From: Bryobacteraceae bacterium | Lineage (GTDB): Bacteria; Acidobacteriota; Terriglobia; Bryobacterales; Bryobacteraceae | DNA: 64,000 bases | Assembly: GCA_963825845.1 (NCBI GenBank) | Contig: CAWGVL010000047.1 | Span: 40,416 to 104,415, forward strand | Reading direction: 5' to 3' | Part shown: piece after piece, positions 4,183 through 29,432 of the stretch | Layout: each line of letters starts with the position of its first letter | Position numbering within the stretch: position 1 is the stretch's first letter | Program-made: the position numbers and the translations under genes | The notes under the pieces: model-generated | Database searches by the model: none | The model's input: only the letters and a program-made list of their open reading frames with translations | What the model was told of the DNA's origin: nothing

Positions 4183-5517
4183 ATGCCGAGCGTTATGAAC
4201 CCGCGATATGATGTCGCCTTGGGGACCAACGTTTCAGTACAACCGAAGACAAAGACACCTGCCTGGTGGCAGCAGGAAGATTGGATGGCGGTGTGGCTCG
4301 GCGGCTTCTTTCTCGTCGCGGTTCTGCTTGGCCTGCGTCTACCGCTGCCCGCATTCAAATGGTCGGACTCGGCCTCTCTTGGAACAATCGCCAGCTCGGG
4401 CGTTCTCGGACAACTGGCCCTCATCTGTGGTATCTATCTGGCTACATCTTTACCAGGCGCCGTTGCGCTCGGCGCCAAGGCGGGTCGCTACGTCACTGGT
4501 TTCCCGTTCGTCTTCGTACTTGCCTGGCTCGCGCAGGTAGCCGCCGGCAATGCGACCGCCAATTACTGGGGAATCGAGTACGTCATTTTCGCGCTGATCT
4601 TGGGCCTGTTTGTCAGCAATGTGATTGGGGTACCTGCATGGCTGCAGGAGGCAGTCCGGACCGAGTACTACATCAAAACGGGCCTCGTGATCATGGGGGC
4701 CACCATTCTGTTTCAGGAGATTATGACCGCGGGCGCTCTCGGCATGCTCCAGGCGGTGGCGGTTGTCATTGTGATCTGGTATCTCACGTTCTGGCTCGCG
4801 AAGCGGTTGCGCCTCGACGATGAGTTCGCGGCCATGCTCGCCTCGGCTGTTTCCATTTGCGGTGTATCGGCCGCCATCGCAACGTGCGGCGCCATACAAG
4901 GCGATCGACGGAAGCTCAGCTACGTCGCGTCACTAGTGCTAATCGTGGCAGTCCCGATGATCGTTATCCAGCCCTGGATTATCCGCGGCATCAACATGCC
5001 GGACATTGTGGGTGGAGCTTGGCTCGGAGGCACACTCGACACGACCGGATCCGTTGTCGCGGCCAGCGCATTGATCAGCGAAACCGCGATGAAGATCGGG
5101 ACCATCGTGAAGTTCTCCCAGAACGTACTCATCGGCTTCGCAGCATTCTTCCTTTCTATCTGGTGGACGATACGCCGTCCCGTCGAAGGTCAGGAACGCC
5201 CGACCGTAGGGGTAATCTGGGAGCGCTTCCCGAAGTTCGTCCTCGGCTTCATCGTCTCATCGCTCGTATTTTCGCTGCTCGTCGATGCGAATACTGTCAA
5301 AGCTACGAAATCCTTGATTGGCGGCCTGCGCACGTGGTGGTTCGCCCTAGCGTTCACGTCCATCGGATTGGAAACGAAGTTCACTGACCTGCTGTCGATG
5401 GAAGGTGGAAGGCCGTTCGTCGCCTTTATGGGAGGCCAGTTCGCGAACCTGATATGGACTCTGCTCCTGGCTTATTTGATCTTCGGGGGTGTCTTCTTCG
5501 CCCCTCCGTCGATCTAG
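4183..5517 (+). CDS. multi-pass inner-membrane protein, YeiH/UPF0324-like (putative sulfate exporter family), tentative
   Basis: 444-aa ORF, hydrophobic throughout with about 10 or more TM stretches. The segment GLVIMGATILFQEIM...ASAVSICGVSAAIATCGAI resembles UPF0324 proteins. The family assignment is from memory only. Confidence 0.5.
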   Translation: MPSVMNPRYDVALGTNVSVQPKTKTPAWWQQEDWMAVWLGGFFLVAVLLGLRLPLPAFKWSDSASLGTIASSGVLGQLALICGIYLATSLPGAVALGAKAGRYVTGFPFVFVLAWLAQVAAGNATANYWGIEYVIFALILGLFVSNVIGVPAWLQEAVRTEYYIKTGLVIMGATILFQEIMTAGALGMLQAVAVVIVIWYLTFWLAKRLRLDDEFAAMLASAVSICGVSAAIATCGAIQGDRRKLSYVASLVLIVAVPMIVIQPWIIRGINMPDIVGGAWLGGTLDTTGSVVAASALISETAMKIGTIVKFSQNVLIGFAAFFLSIWWTIRRPVEGQERPTVGVIWERFPKFVLGFIVSSLVFSLLVDANTVKATKSLIGGLRTWWFALAFTSIGLETKFTDLLSMEGGRPFVAFMGGQFANLIWTLLLAYLIFGGVFFAPPSI

Positions 5518-16362: not shown

Positions 16363-17425
16363 CGCCGACGGGCGTACCATCGCGGATCTCATCCGAAGCT
16401 CGCCGCACGAGAACATCGCCTTCCTGAATGTCAGGACTGATTAACTCGACCAGATCTCCGATGCTCCGGCCTTTGCGGACATCTACCCACTCGGCGCGTC
16501 CGCCCCGAACCCGGACGACAAAGGTGCGCTCCGTCGTGGTCACTACCGCAGTCGGAGGAGCCAGCAAGGAATGCCGGCGCTGACGAACAGGCCAGTCCAC
16601 CTGGGCGTACATCCCGGGAGAAAGCTTGCCATTCGTGTTAATAACGTCCGCCTCCACCGGCATCGTGCGCGTTTTCAGATCGAGAGATCGCGGGATTCGC
16701 GCAATGGTTCCGCGGAAGGATTCCCCCGCGAAGGCCGAGACGGTGAACATCACGGACCCGCCGCGAACGACGCTCCCGGCTTCCGTTTCCGGAACAGGCA
16801 CGATCAAACGAAGCCGCGATACTTGCTCAATGCGGACTAGCCTCTCGCGACCGGGTCCAACGAGCGCCCCCGGATGGACATCTCGTTCCGTCACAACGCC
16901 GTCGAATGGCGCCGTGATCCGAAGATACTTCAGGTTTTCCCGTAGGGGTTCCACAGCCGCGGCAGCGGAACGCTTCGAACTCTCGAGCGCCGCTACTACC
17001 GCGCGGGCGGCAGCAACCGCCTTTTCCGCCGTGATCAGTTCATTCCCGGCGATAGCACCCGCCGTCGCGGACGCCGCGTTCATTCGATCATACGTACTCT
17101 GCGCGGAAGCCAACTTCGCTTCCGCCTCTGCACGCTGCGACTCGATGATCTCGACTTTTGATACAGCTTCAGCAACCTGGGCCTGCATCTCAGGGGCGCT
17201 TAGCTCGGCGATCACCTGTCCTTTCTGAACGGCGGATCCTCGGTCAACGCTGATCTTCTCGAGATAGCCGGTTACCCGCGCATAGATGTCGACCGCTTGA
17301 TAGGGAGCCAGATCTCCAGTCAACTTGACCGAACGCTCCACCGCCTGACTCGTGACCTTAACCGTTTCGACCTGCGCAAATGCGTTGCAAGCCGCGAGCA
17401 CCGCCACTGCGCTAACGAGCTTCAT
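16355..17425 (-). CDS. efflux RND transporter periplasmic adaptor (membrane fusion protein)
   Basis: Start taken at MKLVSAVAVLAACNAFAQ (ATG 17425, GGTGG upstream). The lipoyl/hairpin pattern reads VDIYARVTGYLEKISVDRGSAVQKGQVIAEL...coiled coil...ITAPFDGVVTERDVHPGALV. Confidence 0.85.
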   Translation of the reverse strand: MKLVSAVAVLAACNAFAQVETVKVTSQAVERSVKLTGDLAPYQAVDIYARVTGYLEKISVDRGSAVQKGQVIAELSAPEMQAQVAEAVSKVEIIESQRAEAEAKLASAQSTYDRMNAASATAGAIAGNELITAEKAVAAARAVVAALESSKRSAAAAVEPLRENLKYLRITAPFDGVVTERDVHPGALVGPGRERLVRIEQVSRLRLIVPVPETEAGSVVRGGSVMFTVSAFAGESFRGTIARIPRSLDLKTRTMPVEADVINTNGKLSPGMYAQVDWPVRQRRHSLLAPPTAVVTTTERTFVVRVRGGRAEWVDVRKGRSIGDLVELISPDIQEGDVLVRRASDEIRDGTPVGAK

Positions 17426-20400
17426 ACCACCTGCTTTCCGGATCTGTAGGATCAAGCGAAACGCTACCCGCCCCGGCCCGCGATTGCAGAATTGCATAGA
17501 GTCCGGGCAATACGAGCAGGGTCGCGAATGTCGCCGCTACCAGCCCGCCAATAACCGCACGGCCCAGCGGAGCAGTCTGCTCAGCCCCTAGCGCAATCGG
17601 GATCATGCCCGCGATCATCGCGGTTGCGGTCATTAACACGGCCCGAAGCCGGTCCCGAGCGCCAGTAGCGGCGGCTTCCACTGCATTCCCGGTCGCTACT
17701 CGGGTTCGCTCCGCAAAGCTGACCAGCAGAATCGCGTTCGCGACGGCGATGCCCATCGCCATAATCGCCCCCGTGAACGATTGGACGTTTAGGGTCGTAT
17801 TGGTAAGCAACAACGCCACAGCCACACCCAATAAGACAGCAGGCAGCATCAGCACAATACTCAGTGAGAGCCGGAACGATTGAAAGGCTGCGGCCAGCAA
17901 CAGGAATATTGCTCCGATTGACAGCGCCAGCCCTAGACGAAGGCCGCTCAGCGTCTCCTCCAATGGGGGAATCTGGCCACGCAAGTTCACGGTCACGCCG
18001 CGAGGAGGAGTTCCTGCCCGCTGAACAGCCGCTCGGATCGCCTTCGAGGCATCTCCCAGCGGCACACCCTCCACGTTGGCCGTGAACGACACCACGCGCT
18101 GCATGTTGTAGCGATCGATCTCTCCCGCCGTTTTTCCCAGCTTCACACTAGCGACATCTCCGAGCAGAGGGCGCGTTCCTCCGTTGGACATCACTGGGAG
18201 ATTCCGAACATCATCGACCGAAGCCATGCGGTTCTGCGGGATCTCCACCTGAATCTGGAACGCGTTGCCGCTCGCGGGGTCACGCCAATAATTCGGCTCG
18301 ACAAAACGGCTCGAAGACGTTGCCGCCACCAGTGAGCGCGTCACGTTGGATGCTGTCAGTCCATACTGCCCTGCCCTGTCGCGGTCGACCGCGACTTCTA
18401 GCGTCGGATAATCGAACGGCTGTGAAGTTTCGAGGTCGCGAAGGAACTTCAGCTTCACCAGTTCCGCCCGGACTTTCTGTGCATGCTCGCGATTGGCCCC
18501 CATCGCCGGACCTTGTATGGCAACCTCAACCGGAGTGGGTGACCCGAAGCTCAATACCTGACCGATAATGTCACCCGCCTCGAAGCTGATGGCCGTGTCC
18601 GGCATCGCTTTCGCGAATCGGGCCCGCAAGCGTTCATTCAGCTCCTCGCCCCTGAACGGGCGCCCGGCTTGAGCGCCACCTTCAACACCGCTTCATGCGG
18701 GCCAGCCGTCCACAGATAGATCGTATTGATTGGATAACTGGGAGGCTGAACACCGATAAATCCCGTGCTGATGGCCACGTTGTCCGCGCCCACCTCCTCC
18801 CGGATCACATCAAGGGCCCGCAGCGCCATCACTTCCGTCCGCTCGATTCGGGTACCCGTCGCGGCCCGCAGCCGGATCTGGAACTGATTCGTGTCGGCGG
18901 ACGGAAACAATTCCGTCCCAATACGTGGCAGAAGTATCCATAAACAGAACCCGACCACCACTGCATACCCCATCGTCGCCAACCACCGGAAGCCGAGCAC
19001 GCGATCCAGAGTTCGGCCGTATGCCGAACGCAACCTGGACTGGCGTTCACCTTGACTGGAGCGCTCTCGCATCAACCAGACGGAAAGCACGGGCACAACC
19101 GAGCTCGAGAGCGCATACGATGCCAACATCGCGAAACCCACAGCCAGAGACAGCGGCACGAACAGCTGCCTCGCGATCCCAGCCATAAACAAGGAGGAGA
19201 CAAACACCGAAAGGATGCAAAGCATCGACAGCAATCGCGCCGTCGCGGTCTTATTGGCAGCATTCAGCACAGCGTGTGGCCGGGAGAGTCCGGCCGACAT
19301 ATGGGTATGGATGTTCTCGATCTCAACCGTAGCTTCATCGACCAAAACGCCCACGGCAAGCGCCAGTCCGCCAAGAGTCATGATGTTGATGGTTTGGCCG
19401 AATGCCCATAACATCACGACGGAGGAGAGCAGCGCGATCGGGATCGTGGTAATGACGATCAAGGCGCTGCGCCAATCGCGCAGGAAAAGCAGGACGACCA
19501 GTCCGGTCAACACCGCCCCAAGTACACCCTCGTTGATCAAGCTGCGAATCGCGTCCACCACATACCGCGATTGATCGAACTCGAGGCTGATTTTCACGTC
19601 CTGCGGCACGACCGCTTGCATAGCAGGCAGCGCTCGTTTCACACGATCGATGACGGCCAACGTGCTCGCATCGGAACGTTTGGTGACAGGAATGTAAACG
19701 GTTCGCTTGCCGTTCACATGAGCGTAGCCTGTGACGATATCGGTGCCGTTCTCGACGATCCCGATGTCTCGCAAATATACATTCGGTCCGTTTCTCGCAC
19801 GAACAGGAGCATCCATCAGTTCCGGCAAATTCGCGCCTATTGTTGCGTTCGTTGACGCGAACCGGGTTACATCCCCGGTGCGCACGTTGCCGGAAGGTTG
19901 CACACTGCTGGAGGTATTGACGGCAGCAATCGCCTCCCCTGGCGAGATGCCATACGCGCGCATCCGATCAGGATCGAGACGAACGACAATCGTCCGCTGA
20001 TTCCCGCCAAATGGCGGAGGCGCTGAAACACCTTGCAATGTCGCAAAGAGCGGACGCACGCGATTAAGCGCGAAATCCTGCATCTCTCCGGGCGAGCGCG
20101 CAGGACTCGAGAACACGAGTTGTCCGACTGGTACGCTACCCGCATCGAATCTCGTAATGAACGGAGGAACAGCGCCCGGCGGCATGAACGCGCGCGAACG
20201 GTTTACATACGCAACCACTTCCGCCATCGCCTGATTCATATCCGTGTCCTCATGAAACACGAGCTTCATCAGGGCGACGCCTTGGATGTTCTTCGATTCA
20301 ACGTGTTCAATGCCAGTGATGTAGAGGAAGTGATACTCGTAGTAATACGTGAGGAAGCCTTCCATCTGCGCGGGATCCATGCCGCCATACGGCTGCGCCA

Positions 20401-20539
20401 CATAAATAGCCGGATCACCGAGCTTTGGAAAAATATCTGCCGGCATGCGGCGAATCGCCAATCCGGCTGCGAGCACGATCGCGAGCACAGCGACCGCTAC
20501 GCTTACCGGTCGGCGCATGGCTCCAATTACGAGCCACAT
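17412..20539 (-). pseudogene. efflux RND transporter permease (AcrB/CzcA superfamily), one frame break near 18665
   Basis: ORFs 18638-20539 (633 aa) and 17412-18629 (405 aa) are colinear halves. ...VLKVALKPG continues in a neighbouring frame as [31 protein letters not shown], so a single-base indel in ccggg is implied. Confidence 0.9.
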
Positions 20540-22677: not shown

Positions 22678-23688
22678 GTGCTTGTAAAGGACATCGCGGC
22701 GCTGCTTGATTCGACCTTCGATGGAGAAGGAGATCGGGACATTGTTGGCGCTGCACCTCTCGAATCAGCGGGGGTGAATGAGATCAGCTTTGTAGGAAGT
22801 CGCAAGTTCGCCGATGCGGCAAAGACGTCGACGGCCGGATGCCTGATTGTCCCTCACGACTATGAGGCGGCGATAGGGCAGACGGTCATCCGCGCGGGTA
22901 ACCCAAGAGCCGCATTTGCCGCGGCGCTAGGCAAACTCTATATGGAGCCGGCGCCGCCCTCAGGAGCCCACGCCAGTGCTGTGATTGCTGAGTCAGCCAA
23001 GGTCCATCCGTCGTGTTCTATAGGTCCGCACGTGACGATCGGCAATGATTCCGTCATCGAGGAAGGTACGGTCGTAGGTCCAGGCTGCTCAATTGGCGCG
23101 TACGTGCGCATTGGTCCGGGATCCAAACTGCATGCGCGGGTCACTATATACACCGACATCTCCATCGGAGCCCGCGCCGTTCTGCATTCCGGCTGCGTCA
23201 TCGGAGCAGACGGCTTCGGGTTTGCGCTCACAGGGGACCGATACCAGAAGTTCCCGCAAGTCGGGCGCGTCGAAATCGGAGATGACGTGGAAATCGGAGC
23301 CAATTCCTGCATCGACCGCGCCGCCCTCGGAGTCACAACCATTGGGGAGGGCACAAAGCTGGACAACATGGTCCACATCGGGCATAACTGCCGCATTGGC
23401 AGGCACGTGGTCATTGCGGCGCAGACAGGACTCTCGGGCGCAGTGGTCGTCGAGGACTACGCTGTCATTGGCGGACAGGTCGGCATTGGCGATAAGGCTC
23501 GCATCGAGACGCGAGCGGTTCTGGGATCGGGCAGCGGTGTCCTTACGTCGAAGATCGTCCGCTCGGGTCAAGTTGTCTGGGGCACGCCCGCGCGGCCGCT
23601 CAAAGAGTACCTGCACCAGCTCGCGAACATGGCAAAGATTGCGGAACTCCGGGCGGAGGTAGCGGAGTTGAAAAAACGTCTCGGATGA
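22678..23688 (+). CDS. lpxD: UDP-3-O-acylglucosamine N-acyltransferase
   Basis: GTG 22678, in frame within ORF 22423-23688. VLVKDIAALLDSTFDGEGDRDIVGAAPLESAG..ISFV is the LpxD N-domain. Then long hexapeptide repeats, ...GADGFGF..., and a coiled C-terminus. Confidence 0.85.
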   Translation: MLVKDIAALLDSTFDGEGDRDIVGAAPLESAGVNEISFVGSRKFADAAKTSTAGCLIVPHDYEAAIGQTVIRAGNPRAAFAAALGKLYMEPAPPSGAHASAVIAESAKVHPSCSIGPHVTIGNDSVIEEGTVVGPGCSIGAYVRIGPGSKLHARVTIYTDISIGARAVLHSGCVIGADGFGFALTGDRYQKFPQVGRVEIGDDVEIGANSCIDRAALGVTTIGEGTKLDNMVHIGHNCRIGRHVVIAAQTGLSGAVVVEDYAVIGGQVGIGDKARIETRAVLGSGSGVLTSKIVRSGQVVWGTPARPLKEYLHQLANMAKIAELRAEVAELKKRLG

Positions 23689-24083
23689 TCGTTGTTGTCG
23701 GTGGCAGTTCCCGCAACGTAGGCAAGACCGGGGTGATGTGCGAAATCATCAGCGCGACTCGTGAAGCCGGGTGGACCGCGCTGAAGATCAGCCCCCATGA
23801 CCACCAGCCCGGTCACTTCGGAGACACAGATCGCTTCGCCGCCGCAGGAGCAGTGAACTCGGAACTTCTTAAAGACCCGAATGCGTGGACCTCTTTCGAA
23901 GGCAACTTGATCATCGAGTCGAATGCAATCCTCGATGTTATGACACCAGACGTATTCGTCTTCGTGGCAGGAAACGGCGAGTGGAAATCATCGGCGATGA
24001 AACATGCGGCTGAAGCTGATTTCACCGTTAGCGGTCACGCGACACCGGAACTCATCGAACGCATTTGCTCATTGCTCACATAA
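23685..24083 (+). CDS. small MobB-like P-loop protein (tentative)
   Basis: The ATG overlaps the lpxD stop (ATGA). MIVVVGGSSRNVGKTGV (degenerate Walker A) ...ALKISPHDH...DTDRFAAAGA...LIIESN parallels MobB blocks (GKTT / IKHxHH / DS..AGA / LVEG), recalled from memory. Confidence 0.4.
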   Translation: MIVVVGGSSRNVGKTGVMCEIISATREAGWTALKISPHDHQPGHFGDTDRFAAAGAVNSELLKDPNAWTSFEGNLIIESNAILDVMTPDVFVFVAGNGEWKSSAMKHAAEADFTVSGHATPELIERICSLLT

Positions 24084-24109: not shown

Positions 24110-25477
24110 TCATTCGCCCCCAAGCACCCGCAGCTGCTCTCGGCTAAACCGGAGGTCCTCGACGAAGCGGCGGTACTCCTCCTCCTGTCGCTCGGGTACC
24201 CGAAGGATAAAGGACGGGTGCACGGTCGCGGTCACTCCCATCGAATGCCTGTGACGCACGACTGTCCCTCTCAATTCCGAGACCTTCGCCACGCGTCCGA
24301 CCACCGAAAGAACCGCTGTATTCCCGAGGCAAACGATGAGCTTGGGACGAATCAAAGCCAATTCGGCTTCGAGCCAGGGCTGGCACGCCGCAATTTGTCC
24401 CCGGGTTGCCGTCTTATGGATTCGAGCCTTGCCTCGCTCCTCAAAGCGGAAGTGCTTGACCGCGTTCGTCAAATACACGGAGCCGCGGTCGAGTCCGACC
24501 TCCCCCAGGGCACGATCCAGGATTTGCCCCGCGGGTCCAACGAACGGCATTCCTTCGCGATCCTCCTGGTCACCCGGCTGTTCGCCGACCAGGACCATCT
24601 TGGCATTCGGCGGGCCATATCCAAAGACCGGCTGGGTCGCAGATTCACATAGCTCGCACCCGCGGCAGTTACGAACGGCTTCGCGCAGTACCGGAAAACT
24701 GGCATTCGTCGGAACGAACTCAGCCGCTGACCTTGGGTTCGTTTCGCACATTCGGCGTTCCCGAGACCTCGCGTCCACGATCAGGCCCGGCGCAATGGAC
24801 GTCTCGGGCATCGTCGCCCAGTGCCGGCCCGGAACGTGAGTTCTGAGCAATTTTTCATTCACTCGAGCCGGGTTGAAAATCGATGCGTAATAAGCGCGCC
24901 AAAGCTCCTCCAACTCGTCGTCAGACGGAGCCTCCGACGCCGGAACTCCCGGACCGAAAGTGAGTTCAGCCAGATCCCAGTGCGCGCTTTGATCGGGCGT
25001 GAGGATGCTCCATTTCATCGACCCGAACCGCTCCGCAAACCAGGGGGCCATCCTGTCAACGATGAAGTGATCGGGCCGATGCCACGCGACGTAGCGATCG
25101 CCCACCTGCCGAAACCGGACGAACGCCTTCATGCGGTGCATATCGTGATGGATCTGCTTCTGCATCGTGTACAGGCGGCTGACGTCGGGGTCGCTCTCGA
25201 TTTCGAGTAAATGACGTTCACCGTTCACCGTTCGGAACAGCACACGATAAAGCAACGCCCACTTCGCTTCATCGCGATGGCACGCAATTCCTTTCGCTAC
25301 GTCAAGAAAGGCCTTGGAAACTGTGATCGCGCGACCGGTTGGCGGCGGCATCTCAGCAGCAAATAAAGTCGGTTCGGACGTCCACAGAACGTCTTCTGGC
25401 GGCACACCGGCGGAGAGCAACTGGCGAGCCGCATCCCGCCAACCCGCAAAAGTGCGCTCAAACGCCGCGACGATCAC
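24110..25477 (-). CDS. fusion protein: DUF4130 (probable DNA metabolism protein) N-terminal domain + family-4, UdgX-like uracil-DNA glycosylase C-terminal domain
   Basis: N-terminal half: HDMHRMKAFVRFRQVGDRYVAWHRPDHFIVDRMAPWFAERF. C-terminal half: CRGCELC, VLVGEQPG (motif A), FVGPAG, YLTNAVKHFRFEERGKARIHKTAT, ATVHPSFILR (motif B). Confidence 0.8.
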   Translation of the reverse strand: MIVAAFERTFAGWRDAARQLLSAGVPPEDVLWTSEPTLFAAEMPPPTGRAITVSKAFLDVAKGIACHRDEAKWALLYRVLFRTVNGERHLLEIESDPDVSRLYTMQKQIHHDMHRMKAFVRFRQVGDRYVAWHRPDHFIVDRMAPWFAERFGSMKWSILTPDQSAHWDLAELTFGPGVPASEAPSDDELEELWRAYYASIFNPARVNEKLLRTHVPGRHWATMPETSIAPGLIVDARSRERRMCETNPRSAAEFVPTNASFPVLREAVRNCRGCELCESATQPVFGYGPPNAKMVLVGEQPGDQEDREGMPFVGPAGQILDRALGEVGLDRGSVYLTNAVKHFRFEERGKARIHKTATRGQIAACQPWLEAELALIRPKLIVCLGNTAVLSVVGRVAKVSELRGTVVRHRHSMGVTATVHPSFILRVPERQEEEYRRFVEDLRFSREQLRVLGGE

Positions 25478-26697
25478 AACTCACCCGTGACCGCGGCGAC
25501 CGTGGAATCGAAGAGGCTCATCTGGCGAAACGAGCCGGGCAGTGAAACCGTGTCTAGCCGCAGCACTGCCGGACTATAATCCGCCGCCACAATGAATGAC
25601 TTCGCTTTGCTCAGGGGCACTCGTAATTGAACAAGGTCCGCCAACCGCAGCCGTGCGTATCTGCGAATCTTCAACATTCGTTTGACATTACGCACGCCGA
25701 AGCCCGGGACGCGCAGAAGTTCCGCCTGCGACGCCTTGTTCACGTCAACCGGGAACCTATGCCGGTTTCGCAGCGCCCATTCGAGCTTGGGGTCTTTATC
25801 AAGCGGCAGGTTCGGCTGACCCGGGACGGTCAATTCTGACGAATCGAACCCATAGAAGCGCATCAGCCAGTCCGCTTGATACAACCGATGCTCCCGCACC
25901 AGCGGCGCACGATCGACTGGCAAGCGGCCGTCTGAATATGGGATCGGGCTGAAGCCGGAGTAGTAAACACGACGTAGATTGTAAGCGGAGTAGAGGTGCG
26001 CAGACGTCGTCAGGATCGTAGCGTCCGTAGTCTCCGTAGCGCCGACAACCATCTGGGTGCTCTGGCCTGCTGCATACGGCTGTCGTATCTCCTTCGCTTC
26101 GGTGATTCCGTCGCGGATCTGACTCATGGACGTCTCGATCTCGTTATGGCTTTTCGCCGGAGCGAGACGATCGAGGTCGGCTTGCGTCGGAAGCTCGATA
26201 TTCGCGCTAAGGCGATCCGCCCACCGCCCCGCCTGCAACAAGAGCTCACGCGATGCGCCGGGTACTGCCTTCAGGTGAATATACCCGCCGAAGGAGTGAT
26301 CTTCCCGCAGCGACCGGGCAACCTCGACGAGGTCTTCCATCGTGTAGTCAGGACTCTGAATTACCCCGGAGCTTAGGAATAGGCCTTCGATATAGTTTCG
26401 TTTGTAGAACTCGAGAGTGAGAGTAATGACTTCCTGAGGAGTAAAGCGTGCTCGTGGAGTGTCACTCGACACACGGTTCACGCAATATGCGCAATCGTAA
26501 ACACAGTAGTTTGTGAGGAGAATCTTAAGAAGAGAGATACATCGCCCGTCCGGCGTGTAGCTATGGCAGATTCCTACGCCGGCGCCATTGCCGAGCCCCC
26601 CTTCCGGCCTCTTCCGGTTTGAACCGCTGCTGGCACAGGAAGCGTCGTACTTCGCCGCATCGGCTAAGATCCGCAGCTTGGATTGCACATCCATCAC
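25474..26697 (-). CDS. putative DNA modification/repair radical SAM protein with C-terminal helix-hairpin-helix
   Basis: CVYDCAYCVN is a CxxxCxxC motif. HhH-like: ASQAELLRVPGFGVRNVKRMLKIRR. Its stop overlaps the start of the DUF4130/UDG gene (ATGA at 25474-25477). Confidence 0.8.
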   Translation of the reverse strand: MMDVQSKLRILADAAKYDASCASSGSNRKRPEGGLGNGAGVGICHSYTPDGRCISLLKILLTNYCVYDCAYCVNRVSSDTPRARFTPQEVITLTLEFYKRNYIEGLFLSSGVIQSPDYTMEDLVEVARSLREDHSFGGYIHLKAVPGASRELLLQAGRWADRLSANIELPTQADLDRLAPAKSHNEIETSMSQIRDGITEAKEIRQPYAAGQSTQMVVGATETTDATILTTSAHLYSAYNLRRVYYSGFSPIPYSDGRLPVDRAPLVREHRLYQADWLMRFYGFDSSELTVPGQPNLPLDKDPKLEWALRNRHRFPVDVNKASQAELLRVPGFGVRNVKRMLKIRRYARLRLADLVQLRVPLSKAKSFIVAADYSPAVLRLDTVSLPGSFRQMSLFDSTVAAVTGEL

Positions 26698-26766
26698 AGG
26701 AGAATACCAGGCGAAACTGCTCGTATTCTCTCATACATTGATGAACGACGTAAGCGAACGTAAGAT

Positions 26767-28504
26767 TTAAATACCGTCGCCGCCGAGACCACGCTCATCC
26801 GGCCGGACGAACCCCCGCGCCTCAAGGAGGCGTGTAATCTGCTCCATGGCTTCAGAGTCGTTGGACAAAAGCGTCTGCGGGTCGATGTCCACGAACTGTT
26901 CGGCGCCGACGAGTTGCCGCGCGCGATCGCGTTCAGCGCCCTGATCGGACGAAATCGTGCAGATGGTGATCAGCCCAGCTGCGCTGGACATCTTCGCGAG
27001 TTCGGGCAGCAAGTGGCTCTCAACATCATCGGCAAGGACGTGGACCATGCATCCCCGATCGAACAGTTCACGCTCGAGCAGGTAAGCCACATCAGTCCGG
27101 GCCGTCATCCAGATGGTGACCGGTCGATGTCCCGCGCGCTCCCAGCGTTCCGCTGCCGTCAACCGACTGCGCTCGAACTCCACTCCGGCGAGGACAGATT
27201 TACGGGAGGAGTCATCCCTAACAACTCGCTCGGCGATCATTCCGGCGCCGACGGTCAGATTCGTAACTGGATCGATCAGAATGAATGCGCCGGTTCCGCG
27301 ATTCCTCCGGTACGCATCGAAGAAGATCGGGCGATGGGTCTCAATCGAGACAACGCCGATCTCGTTTAATTCCAGCTTTGACGACTGAATTTTCGATAGA
27401 TCGTTGATATTGACTCGATGATGGAGATGACTGATATTCGCCCGGACCTGCTGCGACGTGTGTTTCAGCAGATACGGCCGGTCGACCTGCATAGGATCGG
27501 TCGCCATCCAGACTATCGTCGCTTCAAAACGTCGCGACACATGCGGCATGCGAGAGGGCCGGACCAACATGTCGCCCCGGCTGATGTCGATCTCATCATC
27601 CAGACAGACCGTTACCGATTGCGGCGCATAAGCTTCTTCCAGATCACCGTCGAATGTAACGATCGACTTCACACGACTCGTCCGACCAGACGGCAGCACC
27701 ATCACCCGATCGCCGCGCTTGATGACTCCCGAAGCAACCTGACCGGCGTACCCACGAAAATCAAGCGTTGGCCGGACAACATACTGTACAGGGAAACGCA
27801 TCTCTTCGCCGAACTGAAGCTGAATCGGAACGGTTTCAAGAATATGCAGCAGCGTGCCGCCGCGATACCACGGCGTTCGCGGACTGACGCTGACCACGTT
27901 ATCCCCCTCCAGCGCGCTGATGGGAATGAAATGGACGTTCGAAAGATTCAAATCGCGCGCGAATTCCTGGAAATCCGCACAGATGTTCGTGAATACCTCC
28001 TCGCTATAGTCAACAAGGTCCATTTTATTCACGGCAACAACAACGTGAGGGATCGCAAGCAGCGAAGCGATAAACGCATGCCGGCGAGACTGCGGCAGAA
28101 CACCTTTGCGCGCGTCGACTAGAACAATGGCAAGCTGCGCGGTAGATGCGCCCGTCGCCATGTTGCGCGTGTACTGCTCGTGGCCAGGTGTGTCGGCAAT
28201 GATGAATTTGCGTTTCGGAGTGGTGAAATACCTGTATGCGACATCGATCGTAATTCCCTGCTCGCGTTCGGCCTTTAAGCCGTCCGTGAGCAGCGAGAAA
28301 TCGATCGGGCCGGCCGGAACGATTCACCGACGCCTTTTTCACCGACGCCAGTTGATCTTCGTAGACACCTTTGGAATCGTAAAGCAAACGGCCAATCAGT
28401 GTGGATTTTCCATCGTCCACACTTCCGGCGGTGGTGAATCGAAGAAGTTCTTTGTGCTGCTCCTGCTCGAGGAACTCGTCGATCGCGGATTGTGCTGCGG
28501 CCAT
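26767..28504 (-). pseudogene. cysN: sulfate adenylyltransferase subunit 1 (CysN GTPase) with degenerate APS-kinase-like C-terminal domain; one frame break near 28310
   Basis: ORF 28025-28504 reads [32 protein letters not shown]. After ccggccggccc, the frame of ORF 26767-28161 reads [55 protein letters not shown]...NKMDL. Confidence 0.9.
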
Positions 28505-29432
28505 TTAGAAATAACCCTCGCGCTTCTTCAGCTCCATCGAGCCTTCCTGATCGTGGTCGATGATGCGATTTTCGCGTTCGGAGCGGCGCATGAGAAACAG
28601 TTCTTCGATAATCTTCGGGAGCGTGTCCGCAGCGGAACGAATTGCGCCCGTACAAGGCGTGCATCCGAGCGACCGCATGCGGGACATCACCATCTTGGGC
28701 TTCTTCACCCGGCAGAAGCGGTGGGTCGTGCTCGATGGGCAGCAGCGACTCGCCGCGAACGACCATCGGGCGTTCCTTCGCAAAATACAGCGGAACAATC
28801 GGAATGTTCTCGAGGTGGATGTACTGCCACACATCCAGTTCCGTCCAGTTGGAGAGCGGAAACACTCGGATCGTCTCGCCTTTGTCGATTCGCGCGTTAT
28901 AGATGTTCCACAATTCGGGACGCTGGTTTTTCGGATCCCATTGTCCGTAGGCGTCACGGAACGAATAGATTCGCTCTTTCGCGCGGGACTTCTCTTCATC
29001 GCGCCTGGCTCCGCCAAACGCCGCGTCAAAACCGTACTTCCCCAATCCATCCAGCAGCGCCCGCGTCTTGAGGAAGCCGCAGCACTTCTGAGTACCAAGC
29101 TTGTAGGGGTTGGCTCCGTCCGCTATCGCCTCCTCATTCCTGTACACCAGCAGGTTCGCTCCGATCGACCCAGGATACTGGTCTCGGAACTCAATCATTT
29201 CGCGGAACTTGAAGCTCGTATCGATATGCAGGAGAGGGAACGGGATCGGGCCGGGATAGAAGGCTTTCTGGGCCAGACGCAGCATCACCGACGAGTCTTT
29301 GCCAATAGAGTACAGCATCACCGGTTTTGCGAACTCGGCAGCTACTTCACGGATGATATGAATACTTTCCGCTTCGAGAGCGCGTAAGTGAGTCAGGGTG
29401 CGGGAAGAGATGGCTTCGGCTACGGCGCTCAT
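28505..29432 (-). pseudogene. cysD: sulfate adenylyltransferase subunit 2; one frame break near 28700-28712
   Basis: ORF 28275-29432 reads [35 protein letters not shown]...[33 protein letters not shown]...LLPGEE. The frame of ORF 28505-29098 continues [23 protein letters not shown]...[11 protein letters not shown]-stop. The TAA is directly followed by the cysN ATG. Confidence 0.9.

Follow-up and report, generated by a model that had tools for sequence, protein, structure and literature searches.

The locus considered here pairs a radical-SAM gene with a gene that fuses a DUF4130 domain to a uracil-DNA glycosylase (UDG) domain of the UdgX type, and it raises the question of what a radical enzyme and such a glycosylase might do together on DNA. 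Evaluating the pair within the window (the whole analysed stretch of 64,000 nucleotides) and among related loci, we found a typical member of a widespread and already catalogued module, which very probably belongs to the DNA-damage response and carries a crosslinking domain of the UdgX type.

The gene pair and its linkage across bacteria

The radical-SAM gene (25474..26697, minus strand) encodes 407 aa if read from the GTG at 26697 and 406 aa if read from the ATG at 26694, and the ATG is probably the start since relatives are 404-406 aa long and begin MDVQ. The fusion gene (24110..25477, minus strand) encodes 455 aa, with GTG as its start codon in the coding-strand reading. The two share a 4-nt stop/start overlap (25474..25477, minus strand) that would couple their translation; a preliminary description of this DNA had placed the overlap correctly but had given it as ATGA, where the coding strand reads GTGA. 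That description had left the strand of both genes unstated. Close junctions of this kind are common, as 57 of 74 related loci have an overlap or a gap of at most 15 nt (4-nt overlap in 27, 1-nt overlap in 12, gap of at most 15 nt in 18). Both frames (25474-26697 and 24110-25477) were confirmed to be open, and translation recovered the motifs quoted previously (CVYDCAYC, LRVPGFGVRNVKRMLKIR, GEQPG, KARIH and HPSFILR) where they had been placed. The pair sits between cysDN and lpxDA behind an upstream spacer of only 69 bp, and because cysN lies those 69 nt ahead of the radical-SAM gene on the same strand, read-through transcription is possible. It is true, as had been pointed out, that the pair is intact next to a frame-broken cysN (a single 1-nt insertion when compared with an intact relative, with cysD likewise broken by one 1-nt insertion), but this contrast carries little weight because single-base frame breaks occur in several genes of the window and may stem from errors in the assembly.

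To place the pair among its relatives, we evaluated 80 loci (Acidobacteriota, Planctomycetota, Verrucomicrobiota, Myxococcota, Bdellovibrionota, Gemmatimonadota, Proteobacteria and others). The expected linkage was recovered, with the radical-SAM gene directly followed by DUF4130, with or without a UDG, in 77 of the 80 loci from many phyla, while no other neighboring gene was conserved (the next commonest occurred in at most 9/80). UdgX was fused to DUF4130 in 60/80 loci, DUF4130 lacked any UDG in 14/80, and DUF72 was fused to DUF4130 in place of UdgX in 2 loci, both from Gemmatimonadota; DUF72 has been described as a UV-damage-endonuclease-like (UVDE-like) TIM barrel of damage-response neighborhoods. 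The best explanation is that the radical-SAM/DUF4130 pair represents the core and UdgX an exchangeable lesion-recognition module. The family numbers quoted earlier (TIGR03916, TIGR03915 and TIGR03914) proved exact, all three models scored above their curated cut-offs, and both proteins are already named by NCBI annotation models. The families are indeed listed ones, as the preliminary description had it, but the module is better documented than its phrase "unknown role" implied, with SOS regulation, an Acinetobacter regulon and an AlphaFold 3 complex all published.

The DUF4130-UdgX fusion protein

The UDG domain (aa 250-446; 24140..24730, minus strand) was delimited using TIGR03914 and the Mycobacterium smegmatis UdgX structures. 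It scored 264.5 bits with the TIGR03914 "UdgX family" model (cut-off 189.95), far higher than the 140.5 bits obtained with the generic family-4 model TIGR00758 (cut-off 125), matched PF03167 in Pfam, and aligned over its whole length with the M. smegmatis UdgX structures (E=5e-53). UdgX is defined by a GEQPG motif A, with Glu52 and with Gln53 replacing the family-4 Ala/Gly, and its H109 forms the covalent bond with C1' at the abasic site (PMC10359453). In the fusion protein, motif A reads GEQPG (aa 298-302 against 51-GEQPG-55; 24572..24586, minus strand), such that E299 and Q300 correspond to UdgX E52 and Q53; the R-loop reads KARIH (aa 350-354, inside FRFEERGKARIHKTAT; 24416..24430, minus strand), with R352 at UdgX R107 and H354 at UdgX H109; motif B reads HPSFILR (24200..24220, minus strand), with H420 and R426 aligned to UdgX H178 and R184; and D303/D306 take the places of UdgX D56/D59. 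The sequence features of the UdgX class were all found, namely motif A, the R-loop Arg/His, motif B and the preference for TIGR03914 over TIGR00758. The protein had been proposed to be a non-standard family-4 UDG that keeps the RIH of the UdgX loop, and we can support this by a residue-for-residue alignment with the R-loop (105-KRRIH-109) and by the conserved residues of motifs A and B; because RIH aligns with that R-loop, the possibility that the segment lies elsewhere drops out.

Deviations from the mycobacterial sequence are small. Only UdgX R106 is replaced in the R-loop (by Ala), at a position that varies across the family, and motif B keeps the H, P, S and R of the published pattern HPS(S/A)(L/V)(L/V)R, with its middle F and I outside the pattern and the whole motif within the variation of 63 radical-SAM-linked UDG domains (e.g., HPSYLLR, HPSAILR, HPSWVLR). 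These linked domains retain the equivalents of E52 (61/63), Q53 (60/63), R107 (60/63) and H109 (61/63), and with H178 and R184 added the UdgX residues are kept in 60-61 of the 63. As aligned, the UDG domain retains every residue known for uracil excision and covalent bonding to the abasic sugar by UdgX (E299/H354, equivalent to the E52/H109 dyad, as well as Q300, R352, D303/D306, H420 and R426), and covalent crosslinking by the fused domain is predicted by extrapolation from the stand-alone mycobacterial enzyme. We found no literature report of an SDS- and heat-resistant uracil-DNA complex for a DUF4130-fused member, and the UdgX literature calls the physiological role of UdgX largely unknown.

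The N-terminal DUF4130 domain (aa 6-226; 24800..25462, minus strand) is a predicted adaptor for the radical-SAM protein. It was identified by TIGR03915 (200 bits, E=5.6e-59, cut-off 112; NCBIfam) and PF13566 (133 bits, cut-off 27; Pfam), and the same two-domain architecture was present in all of the best 120 homologues of the fusion protein. Its AlphaFold2 model (pLDDT 85) gave weak Foldseek matches (best E=0.013), mostly to PAP phosphatase, RecJ, DhhP and Cdc45, a weak resemblance that suggests a degenerate DHH/DHHA1-like fold and is consistent with the published family description; the catalytic residues of DHH-type relatives are reported as not conserved in DUF4130. For a homologous pair, an AlphaFold 3 complex of DUF4130 and the radical-SAM protein published in 2026 has an ipSAE of 0.80, an interface of 3,666 Å^2 and a narrow channel suited to single strands; DUF4130 is predicted to lie where MiaB has its TRAM domain. 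By analogy with that modeled complex, we think it somewhat probable that DUF4130 docks the radical-SAM protein here as well.

The radical-SAM protein and its upstream region

The radical-SAM protein scored 551 bits with TIGR03916 ("rSAM_link_UDG"; E=2e-165, cut-off 343.5; NCBIfam), was matched by Pfam Radical_SAM, and shares 55-68% identity with homologues in other phyla; conservation reaches at least 97% at more than 100 positions among 81 sequences. Its assignment as a radical-SAM enzyme with a CVYDCAYC motif, made earlier, is secured by the score above the curated cut-off and by the motif itself at 26482..26505 (minus strand), whose C65, C69 and C72 are the ligands of the SAM-binding [4Fe-4S] cluster and are invariant (81/81 sequences); the model cut-off, the CX3CX2C motif and an adjoining TIGR03915 gene together define TIGR03916, and the protein has all of these. 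An N-terminal Cys3-His motif (C21, C44-H45 and C53; 26539..26637, minus strand) was also present in 81/81 sequences from many phyla and is a candidate second site that may bind metal or a second Fe-S cluster. The region is disordered in the AlphaFold2 model (pLDDT <50), as is usual for cofactor loops, and we know of no published auxiliary-cluster motif that fits the spacing C-x22-CH-x7-C.

New in this analysis are this invariant extra Cys3-His motif and the finding that the protein has no specific likeness to spore photoproduct lyase (SPL). Foldseek matches were generic (HydE, MiaB, TsrM, viperin, BioB, LipA, RlmN; TM ≤0.39), and a profile search of PDB sequences gave cluster-loop matches to HydG and ThiH only. 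SPL was absent among the 50 best Foldseek matches, and the SPL/SplB family models of NCBIfam and Pfam did not match the protein. With generic fold matches and SPL outside the best 50, nothing points specifically to photoproduct reversal. Membership of the SPL family (SplB, COG1533) was considered and rejected, as neither sequence nor fold is closer to SPL than to other radical-SAM families.

A C-terminal helix-hairpin-helix had been claimed for this protein. The segment (VDVNKASQAELLRVPGFGVRNVKRMLKIR; 25663..25749, minus strand), within which LRVPGFGVRNVKRMLKIR lies, has an R-x-P-G-x-G core (R329, P331, G332, G334) that is at least 97% conserved among 81 sequences and has helices modeled by AlphaFold2 at pLDDT >90, but its match to Pfam HHH_3 is sub-threshold (18.3 bits, E=0.0026, cut-off 27) and that to the ComEA-related 2duy is weak (E=0.037). 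Non-sequence-specific DNA binding is predicted for it. Literature searches returned no biochemical report on the radical-SAM protein and no text mentioning UdgX together with "radical SAM", in line with the earlier statement that neither the radical-SAM partner nor the fused form has been described biochemically.

Evaluating upstream regions for regulatory signatures, we found boxes of the type GAAC-N7-GAAC/GTTC-N7-GTTC in 22 loci at a distance of 25-97 nt upstream (-26 to -50 in 16), with almost all of these loci from Alphaproteobacteria, and CTGT-N8-ACAG boxes 18-32 nt upstream in 4 beta/gamma loci. The LexA operator is canonical in these proteobacterial relatives, whereas the window has only a degenerate motif, the direct repeat TTCGCCTGGTATTC (TTCGC-N6-TTC, period 11; 26702..26715, minus strand), which ends 4 nt before the GTG at 26697 and thereby 7 nt before the ATG at 26694. 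The repeat is a candidate LexA-type operator: it recurs at the same position in 12/81 loci (Acidobacteriota and Gemmatimonadota types) and in 0/81 distal control regions, is conserved in an 80%-identical relative (L085), and is not enriched across the window (6 found, 4.3 expected). The LexA motif of Acidobacterium capsulatum is reportedly GTTC-N7-GTTC. Enclosing the direct repeat is an inverted repeat, GAGAATAC-N15-GTATTCTC (26700..26730, minus strand), which could form either a 5'-leader hairpin or a palindromic operator; a similar one occurs in L085, and the folding z-scores are modest (-1.9 and -1.7). No sigma-70 consensus promoter was found upstream of the pair. Published work describes SOS regulation of this module under the name COG1573-COG4277 operon, a "putative BER system", in Verrucomicrobia, Alphaproteobacteria and Bacteroidetes, and imuA-imuB-dnaE2 and umuDC are members of the same regulons; in Acinetobacter, the DdaA regulon of DNA damage includes the genes for the radical-SAM and TIGR03915 proteins, which desiccation also induces.

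Proposed explanation and comparison with known systems

The explanation we favor, and to which we would give an even chance of holding as a whole, is that the locus represents a self-contained, translationally coupled two-gene DNA-damage-response module of Bryobacterales-like Acidobacteriota, in which UdgX caps abasic sites derived from uracil and a radical enzyme directed at DNA docks onto DUF4130. DNA damage would induce the pair, through LexA-type control in most lineages and other regulators elsewhere, and both proteins would be made 1:1 and complexed via DUF4130, a catalytically dead RecJ/DHH-like nucleic-acid-binding scaffold in this scheme. The UdgX domain would find uracil (chiefly deaminated cytosine within the damaged or single-stranded DNA that sets off SOS), excise it and covalently cap the abasic site such that the site is not cleaved. 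This cap would anchor the radical-SAM/helix-hairpin-helix enzyme on the DNA, where its 5'-deoxyadenosyl radical would act on a neighboring DNA substrate. Quite tentatively, the chemistry might be light-independent direct processing of a pyrimidine lesion beyond the reach of excision repair, with UdgX handling the uracil that such lesions would leave behind. Covalent anchoring of a multi-turnover enzyme would permit one event only, which fits the lesion-reversal guess poorly.

Among alternatives, the radical-SAM/DUF4130 pair could serve as a resolvase of the UdgX-DNA crosslink that breaks or converts the His-C1' linkage, which would make the abasic-site cap reversible. Fusion and coupling would then enforce a 1:1 ratio of suicide protein to enzyme, selection acts on the crosslinking residues of the fused form, and for resolution the UdgX literature invokes only RecA-dependent routes or proteases and no dedicated pathway. 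We nonetheless regard this as unlikely: the pair is UDG-less in 14/80 loci and occurs with DUF72 in 2, so its substrate cannot be the UdgX adduct only; no such partner is encoded within 6 kb of the mycobacterial UdgX gene; and chemical precedent is absent. Damage-induced DNA modification or mutagenesis, in which the radical-SAM enzyme alters bases (e.g., thymine) and the UDG makes abasic sites for error-prone synthesis, draws on the description of DUF4130 by Aravind and colleagues as a [quoted passage not shown], on the regulons shared with imuA-imuB-dnaE2 and umuDC, and on a database name that leaves "modification" as an option. This seems distinctly improbable, as no mutagenic polymerase gene is conserved alongside the module in the 80 loci, the DHH-type catalytic residues are reported as not conserved in DUF4130, and a crosslinking UdgX blocks the abasic site rather than exposing it.

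Modification of RNA (tRNA or rRNA) in the manner of MiaB and RlmN, with a regulatory or incidental UDG link, would account for these two enzymes among the Foldseek matches and for DUF4130 at the predicted TRAM position, and helix-hairpin-helix domains occur in RlmN/Cfr too; yet equally good scores go to HydE, BioB and viperin, 60/80 loci fuse the partner to a domain that excises uracil specifically from DNA and two others to a UVDE-like domain, and at least three unrelated regulators control the genes as part of regulons for DNA damage, making this very improbable. Still less can be said for ordinary base-excision repair by a turning-over family-4 UDG beside an unrelated radical-SAM neighbor: the TIGR00758 cut-off is passed (140 bits against 125) and the operon has been called a "putative BER system", but the UdgX model scores far higher (264 bits), Q53 and the R-loop His, which abolish turnover, are conserved, and radical-SAM adjacency in 77/80 loci spans phyla. 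An anti-phage pair directed at uracil-containing phage DNA has next to no probability, for while UdgX would as a general property crosslink and inactivate dU-rich DNA and the Acinetobacter regulator controls damage-response and defence genes alike, neither protein matched a PADLOC family (E up to 0.01), the loci lie outside defence islands with no conserved neighbors, LexA boxes and housekeeping synteny (cysDN, lpxDA) favor a core repair function, and a search of 2.9 million viral contigs brought up only 2 relatives.

Returning to the damage-response module, its UDG domain (aa 250-446) aligns end to end with M. smegmatis UdgX (MSMEG_0265; PDB 6AIL, 6AJO, 6IOD and others), sharing GEQPG, the R-loop Arg/His, D56/D59, the His/Arg of HPSxxxR and aligned Cys residues. 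Whereas the mycobacterial protein stands alone (208-211 aa, neither partner within 6 kb), the domain here is the C-terminal half of a 455-aa protein, and the two differ in the R-loop (KARIH here, KRRIH there), in the stretch N-terminal to it (FEER-GK here, 2 residues shorter than FTRAAGGK), in motif B (HPSFILR here, HPSSLLR there) and in a fourth family-4-type Cys, C383, which is Leu in M. smegmatis UdgX. Compared with the TIGR03916/TIGR03915/TIGR03914 module at large, gene order, fusion and coupling match the majority of the 80 loci, and the local peculiarities are the cysDN/lpxDA embedding, the short spacer and the degenerate TTCGC-N6-TTC in place of a canonical LexA box.

To our knowledge, SplB (COG1533) is the only radical-SAM DNA-repair enzyme with known chemistry. 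The protein here resembles it in being a radical-SAM enzyme that is under SOS control in many bacteria and presumably acts on DNA, and one comparative study termed the family "SplB-like", but it differs in its Cys3-His motif, C-terminal helix-hairpin-helix and obligatory DUF4130 partner. In concept, the module also resembles SRAP (YedK/HMCES), a damage-response protein that covalently caps abasic sites against strand cleavage and shares an SOS gene-neighborhood network with it. SRAP, which acts through an N-terminal Cys thiazolidine, is unrelated to UdgX in fold and chemistry, has no radical-SAM partner, and binds pre-existing abasic sites, whereas UdgX creates the site by excising uracil. MiaB, RimO and RlmN, among the best fold matches, likewise combine a partial TIM-barrel radical-SAM core with a separate nucleic-acid recognition module and a second conserved Cys set N-terminal to the core, but identity is only 13-19% (TM ≤0.39), and at this locus the accessory module is a separate polypeptide and the context is DNA damage rather than translation.

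Sequence motifs and predicted structure of the gene pair

Evaluating the two genes by ORF calls and translation, we found both reading frames and every peptide motif quoted in the preliminary description where they had been placed, all on the minus strand and with motif coordinates confirmed by translation. The radical-SAM gene (25474-26697, a 407 aa ORF) encodes CVYDCAYC (26482-26505) and a helix-hairpin-helix (HhH) stretch (25663-25749), and the gene directly downstream, a fusion of DUF4130 and a UdgX-type uracil-DNA glycosylase (UDG) (24110-25477, a 455 aa ORF), encodes GEQPG (24572-24586), KARIH (24416-24430) and HPSFILR (24200-24220). The overlap of the two genes, earlier read as ATGA, needs correction: the coding strand at 25474-25477 reads GTGA, so the fusion gene begins with GTG. 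For the radical-SAM gene, the ATG at 26694 is the more likely true start, because its closest relatives are 404-406 aa long and begin MDVQ. Profile searches returned exactly the three TIGRFAM accessions named in the preliminary description, namely TIGR03916 for the radical-SAM protein and, in the fusion protein, TIGR03915 at aa 6-226 (NCBIfam profile match) and TIGR03914, ‘UdgX family uracil-DNA binding protein’, at aa 230-444 (264 bits vs a cut-off of 190), with Pfam in accord (Radical_SAM, DUF4130, UDG).

The radical-SAM protein keeps 55-68% identity across phyla, with more than 100 positions at least 97% conserved, and this conservation is far above that of its fusion-protein partner. Its HHH_3 match falls under the Pfam threshold; across 81 homologues, though, conservation of the hairpin's R-x-P-G-x-G core is 97% or higher, and the one PDB sequence match was to a ComEA-type HhH. 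Just ahead of the CX3CX2C SAM-cluster motif, on its N-terminal side and in a part that the AlphaFold2 model cannot place, lies a Cys3-His set (C21, C44-H45, C53; C-x22-CH-x7-C; 26539-26637, minus strand) that is retained in 81/81 radical-SAM sequences, including all 80 surveyed loci. This set could plausibly form a second metal or Fe-S site, and we found no mention of it for this family in the literature surveyed.

One comparative study (Aravind 2013) labelled the radical-SAM family ‘SplB-like’, after spore photoproduct lyase (SPL). The AlphaFold2 model of the protein (pLDDT 76, core >90) matched generic barrels only (HydE, MiaB, TsrM, viperin, BioB, LipA, RlmN; TM no higher than 0.39), SPL was absent from its 50 best structural matches, and the sequence profile had no matches past the cluster loop and the HhH. 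With no SPL family match and SPL outside those 50, the label is unsupported and we rejected an SPL-like assignment. The DUF4130 domain was modelled at pLDDT 85 and has no significant PDB match; its weak fold matches are mostly DHH/DHHA1 proteins (PAP phosphatase, RecJ, DhhP, Cdc45), in independent agreement with a 2026 preprint. That preprint finds DUF4130 to be without conserved catalytic residues, and predicts a large, confident DUF4130/radical-SAM interface together with a narrow channel fit for single strands.

The UDG domain matched the M. smegmatis UdgX structures over its full length (PDB search, E=5e-53). Its GKARIH segment aligns directly beneath the GKRRIH of that enzyme, bearing out the earlier proposal that the RIH segment is the UdgX loop. 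In an alignment of 63 UDG domains, window residues E299, Q300, D303, D306, R352, H354, H420 and R426 correspond to UdgX E52, Q53, D56, D59, R107, H109, H178 and R184, the set that holds the class-defining residues and those making the covalent His109-C1' bond to the abasic site (PMC10359453). By this alignment, the window fusion is predicted to carry the complete UdgX crosslinking apparatus. The defining residues are retained in 60-61 of the 63 radical-SAM-linked UDG domains, and the property selected in the fused context thus appears to be crosslinking, not ordinary glycosylase turnover.

Linkage and architecture across genomes

Scanning one genome per species with the radical-SAM profile yielded 598 relatives, of which the best 80 were analysed; as these were chosen by similarity to the query protein, the architecture proportions below may be biased and are not an unbiased census. 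The 80 loci span Acidobacteriota, Planctomycetota, Verrucomicrobiota, Myxococcota, Bdellovibrionota, Gemmatimonadota and Alpha-, Beta- and Gammaproteobacteria, plus one Hymenobacter and one Vampirovibrio. The conserved linkage that had been claimed holds across these many phyla, a same-strand DUF4130 gene following the radical-SAM gene in 77/80 loci. The DUF4130-UDG fusion is present in 60/80, with the halves split by a frame break in 1 further locus, and DUF4130 occurs without a UDG within 6 kb in 14/80. Two Gemmatimonadota loci carry, directly behind the radical-SAM gene, a DUF4130-DUF72 fusion instead of the UDG (L018, 1890-3809; L038, 7263-9224; Pfam E=5.5e-54). DUF72 is a TIM barrel described as close kin of UV-damage endonuclease (UVDE) and as enriched in damage-response neighbourhoods, and we found no description of this version of the module in the literature. 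These architectures make the radical-SAM/DUF4130 pair the constant core of the module, with an exchangeable lesion-recognition domain at the C-terminus.

There is no conserved third gene in the module, the next real gene cluster occurring in at most 9/80 loci; neighbour clusters 2-4 were rejected as extra members, being antisense shadow ORFs of the two genes themselves. At the junction (74 loci), the genes overlap by 4 nt in 27 and by 1 nt in 12, and lie no more than 15 nt apart in 18, which makes translational coupling a trait of the family. In two Xanthomonas loci (L051, L056) and two others (L013, L041), the radical-SAM gene does not overlap DUF4130-UdgX but is set 300-730 nt away from it.

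Regulation and genomic neighbourhood

Upstream of the radical-SAM start, we found a GAAC-N7-GAAC or GTTC-N7-GTTC direct repeat at 25-97 nt in 22 loci, nearly all alphaproteobacterial, with the box at -26 to -50 in 16 of them; in the four Bradyrhizobium/Tardiphaga loci, GTTC-N7-GTTC stands at -50 to -97. A CTGT-N8-ACAG box lies 18-32 nt upstream in four beta/gamma loci. These boxes are the established LexA operators of the respective classes. Three Xanthomonas/Lysobacteraceae loci (L051, L056, L057) have none of the LexA box types scanned. SOS regulation of a UDG operon, ‘COG1573-COG4277’, has been reported by the Erill laboratory for Verrucomicrobia, Alphaproteobacteria and Bacteroidetes (PMC8565304). 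Acinetobacter relies on the WYL activator DdaA rather than LexA, and there the radical-SAM and TIGR03915 genes belong to the DNA-damage regulon; the radical-SAM gene is also desiccation-induced. That unrelated regulators govern the genes in different lineages argues strongly for a damage-response role.

For the window pair, the signs of such regulation are weaker. The radical-SAM gene follows cysN on the same strand after 69 nt, with no canonical LexA box upstream (alpha, E. coli, Gram-positive, Xanthomonas and cyanobacterial types) and no sigma-70 consensus or promoter-like site around the module. Three kinds of signal were considered and set aside: two terminator-like matches around the module, both inside coding sequence and fewer than chance expects; an upstream GTTC-N9-GTTC, which has the wrong spacing for a LexA box and is missing from a close relative (L085, a contig 80% identical); and a GAAT-N8-ATTC palindrome, whose sole exact window match lies inside a coding region (chance expectation 1.4). 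A direct repeat, TTCGCCTGGTATTC (26702-26715, minus strand), lies upstream of the gene, stopping 4 nt short of the GTG at 26697 and 7 nt short of the ATG at 26694. Its pattern, TTCGC-N6-TTC, has the period of 11 seen in GTTC-N7-GTTC and recurs at the same position in L085 and in ten other Acidobacteriota/Gemmatimonadota-type loci, amounting to 12/81 proximal regions vs 0/81 distal controls; across the window as a whole it shows no enrichment. LexA control of the window pair is a likely but tentative assignment, and TTCGC-N6-TTC is a candidate operator for the acidobacterial copies. The repeat is enclosed by an inverted repeat, GAGAATAC-N15-GTATTCTC (26700-26730, minus strand), a hairpin just upstream of the start codon that also occurs, with changed arms, in L085 (about 4958-4996). 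Its folding z-scores are only -1.9 and -1.7; it may act as a leader structure or an operator, or mark where the cysN transcript ends.

The nearest homologues come from Bryobacteraceae and other Acidobacteriota metagenome bins. Relatives keep the gene order M28 peptidase, cysD, cysN, radical-SAM/fusion pair, 132-aa ORF, lpxD, lpxA, and in them cysD (308 aa) and cysN (578 aa) are intact. As the preliminary description had it, the window pair is intact beside a broken cysN; judged against the intact genes of L085, cysN (26767-28504, minus strand) has a 1-nt insertion near 28317 (frame -1 to -2), and cysD (28275-29432, minus strand) likewise near 28705 (frame -3 to -1), neither in a long homopolymer. 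These breaks could be real pseudogenisation or assembly errors, and since they may be the latter, an intact pair amid broken neighbours says little. Another break probably affects an RND efflux permease gene, whose ORF (18638-20539, minus strand) covers profile positions 5-598 of about 1009 and is followed directly by a second ORF (17412-18629, minus strand). In a related contig (L086, ENA contig_172371), gene calling splits each of cysD, cysN and the radical-SAM gene into many short genes, fragmentation that is typical of indel-rich long-read assembly and a warning about frame breaks in these metagenome bins. The 132-aa ORF (23685-24083, plus strand) shares an ATGA with the lpxD stop and is convergent with the fusion gene; it begins with a P-loop-like GxxxxGKT (GGSSRNVGKTG), is conserved in synteny in a relative and has no family match in Pfam or NCBIfam.

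Proposed role and comparison with characterised UdgX

To summarize the biology, the radical-SAM gene and its DUF4130-UDG partner form a conserved, coupled, damage-regulated unit. We propose that, after damage, the two proteins would be made 1:1 and joined via DUF4130; the UdgX domain would cut out uracil and cap the abasic site covalently, and the radical-SAM/HhH enzyme, thus held on DNA, would perform its radical chemistry there. Our best guess for that chemistry, a tentative one to which the fold gives no clue, is a light-independent processing of a pyrimidine lesion that could not be excised for want of an intact complement.

The most interesting alternative is crosslink resolution. An improbable reading along this line makes the radical-SAM/DUF4130 complex the missing partner that renders UdgX capping either reversible or productive. 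Covalently bound UdgX would keep the complex at the lesion, where, perhaps with a second, sacrificial metal cluster at the Cys3-His site, it would break the His-C1' crosslink between DNA and protein or else repair the capped site of the single strand chemically. If so, radical-SAM action on a DNA-protein crosslink would have its first example, and UdgX would gain its long-sought physiological role. We prefer lesion processing to crosslink resolution because the core is found without UdgX and because two loci join it to a UVDE-like domain. A part in mutagenesis or modification is possible but improbable, as is RNA modification. Phage defence finds no support, neither protein having a PADLOC match and viral copies being almost absent, and plain base-excision repair is contradicted by the conservation of the Q53 and H109 equivalents.

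Much of the module is already public: curated models name it, with the window locus a typical member, the linkage appears in the TIGRFAM names and in Aravind 2013, and SOS control and the predicted complex are published. The interpretation that we followed up is therefore upheld and its novelty modest, the window locus offering nothing unique past being an intact acidobacterial example. What this analysis adds are the architecture counts, the finding that the characterised UdgX is an orphan, the replacement of UdgX by DUF72, the invariant Cys3-His set, the rejection of the SPL assignment and the candidate operator for acidobacterial copies. Our literature searches turned up no biochemical study of the radical-SAM partner or of a fused UdgX, and the TIGR03916 enzyme is among the most widespread radical-SAM families without a known reaction. 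Solving that reaction would make it, next to that of spore photoproduct lyase, the second DNA-repair chemistry known for radical-SAM enzymes, and would explain why bacteria produce a suicide glycosylase.

UdgX itself is in wide use as a tool (uracil mapping, base editors, DNA-protein conjugation), and the UdgX literature calls its physiological role largely unknown and makes no mention of the radical-SAM partner. Stand-alone genes encode the mycobacterial UdgX proteins that we compared (208-211 aa; identity to the crystallised enzyme 98% and 74%), and neither a radical-SAM nor a DUF4130 gene occurs within 6 kb of them. In two Mycolicibacterium loci (L081, L083), a Peptidase_M78 gene and two phage-type integrase genes are found a few kb away from the stand-alone udgX, which may for this reason sit at the edge of a mobile element. 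The mycobacterial UdgX is thus an orphan, whereas the common natural form of UdgX is fused to DUF4130 and coupled to the gene of an extremely conserved, damage-induced radical-SAM enzyme.
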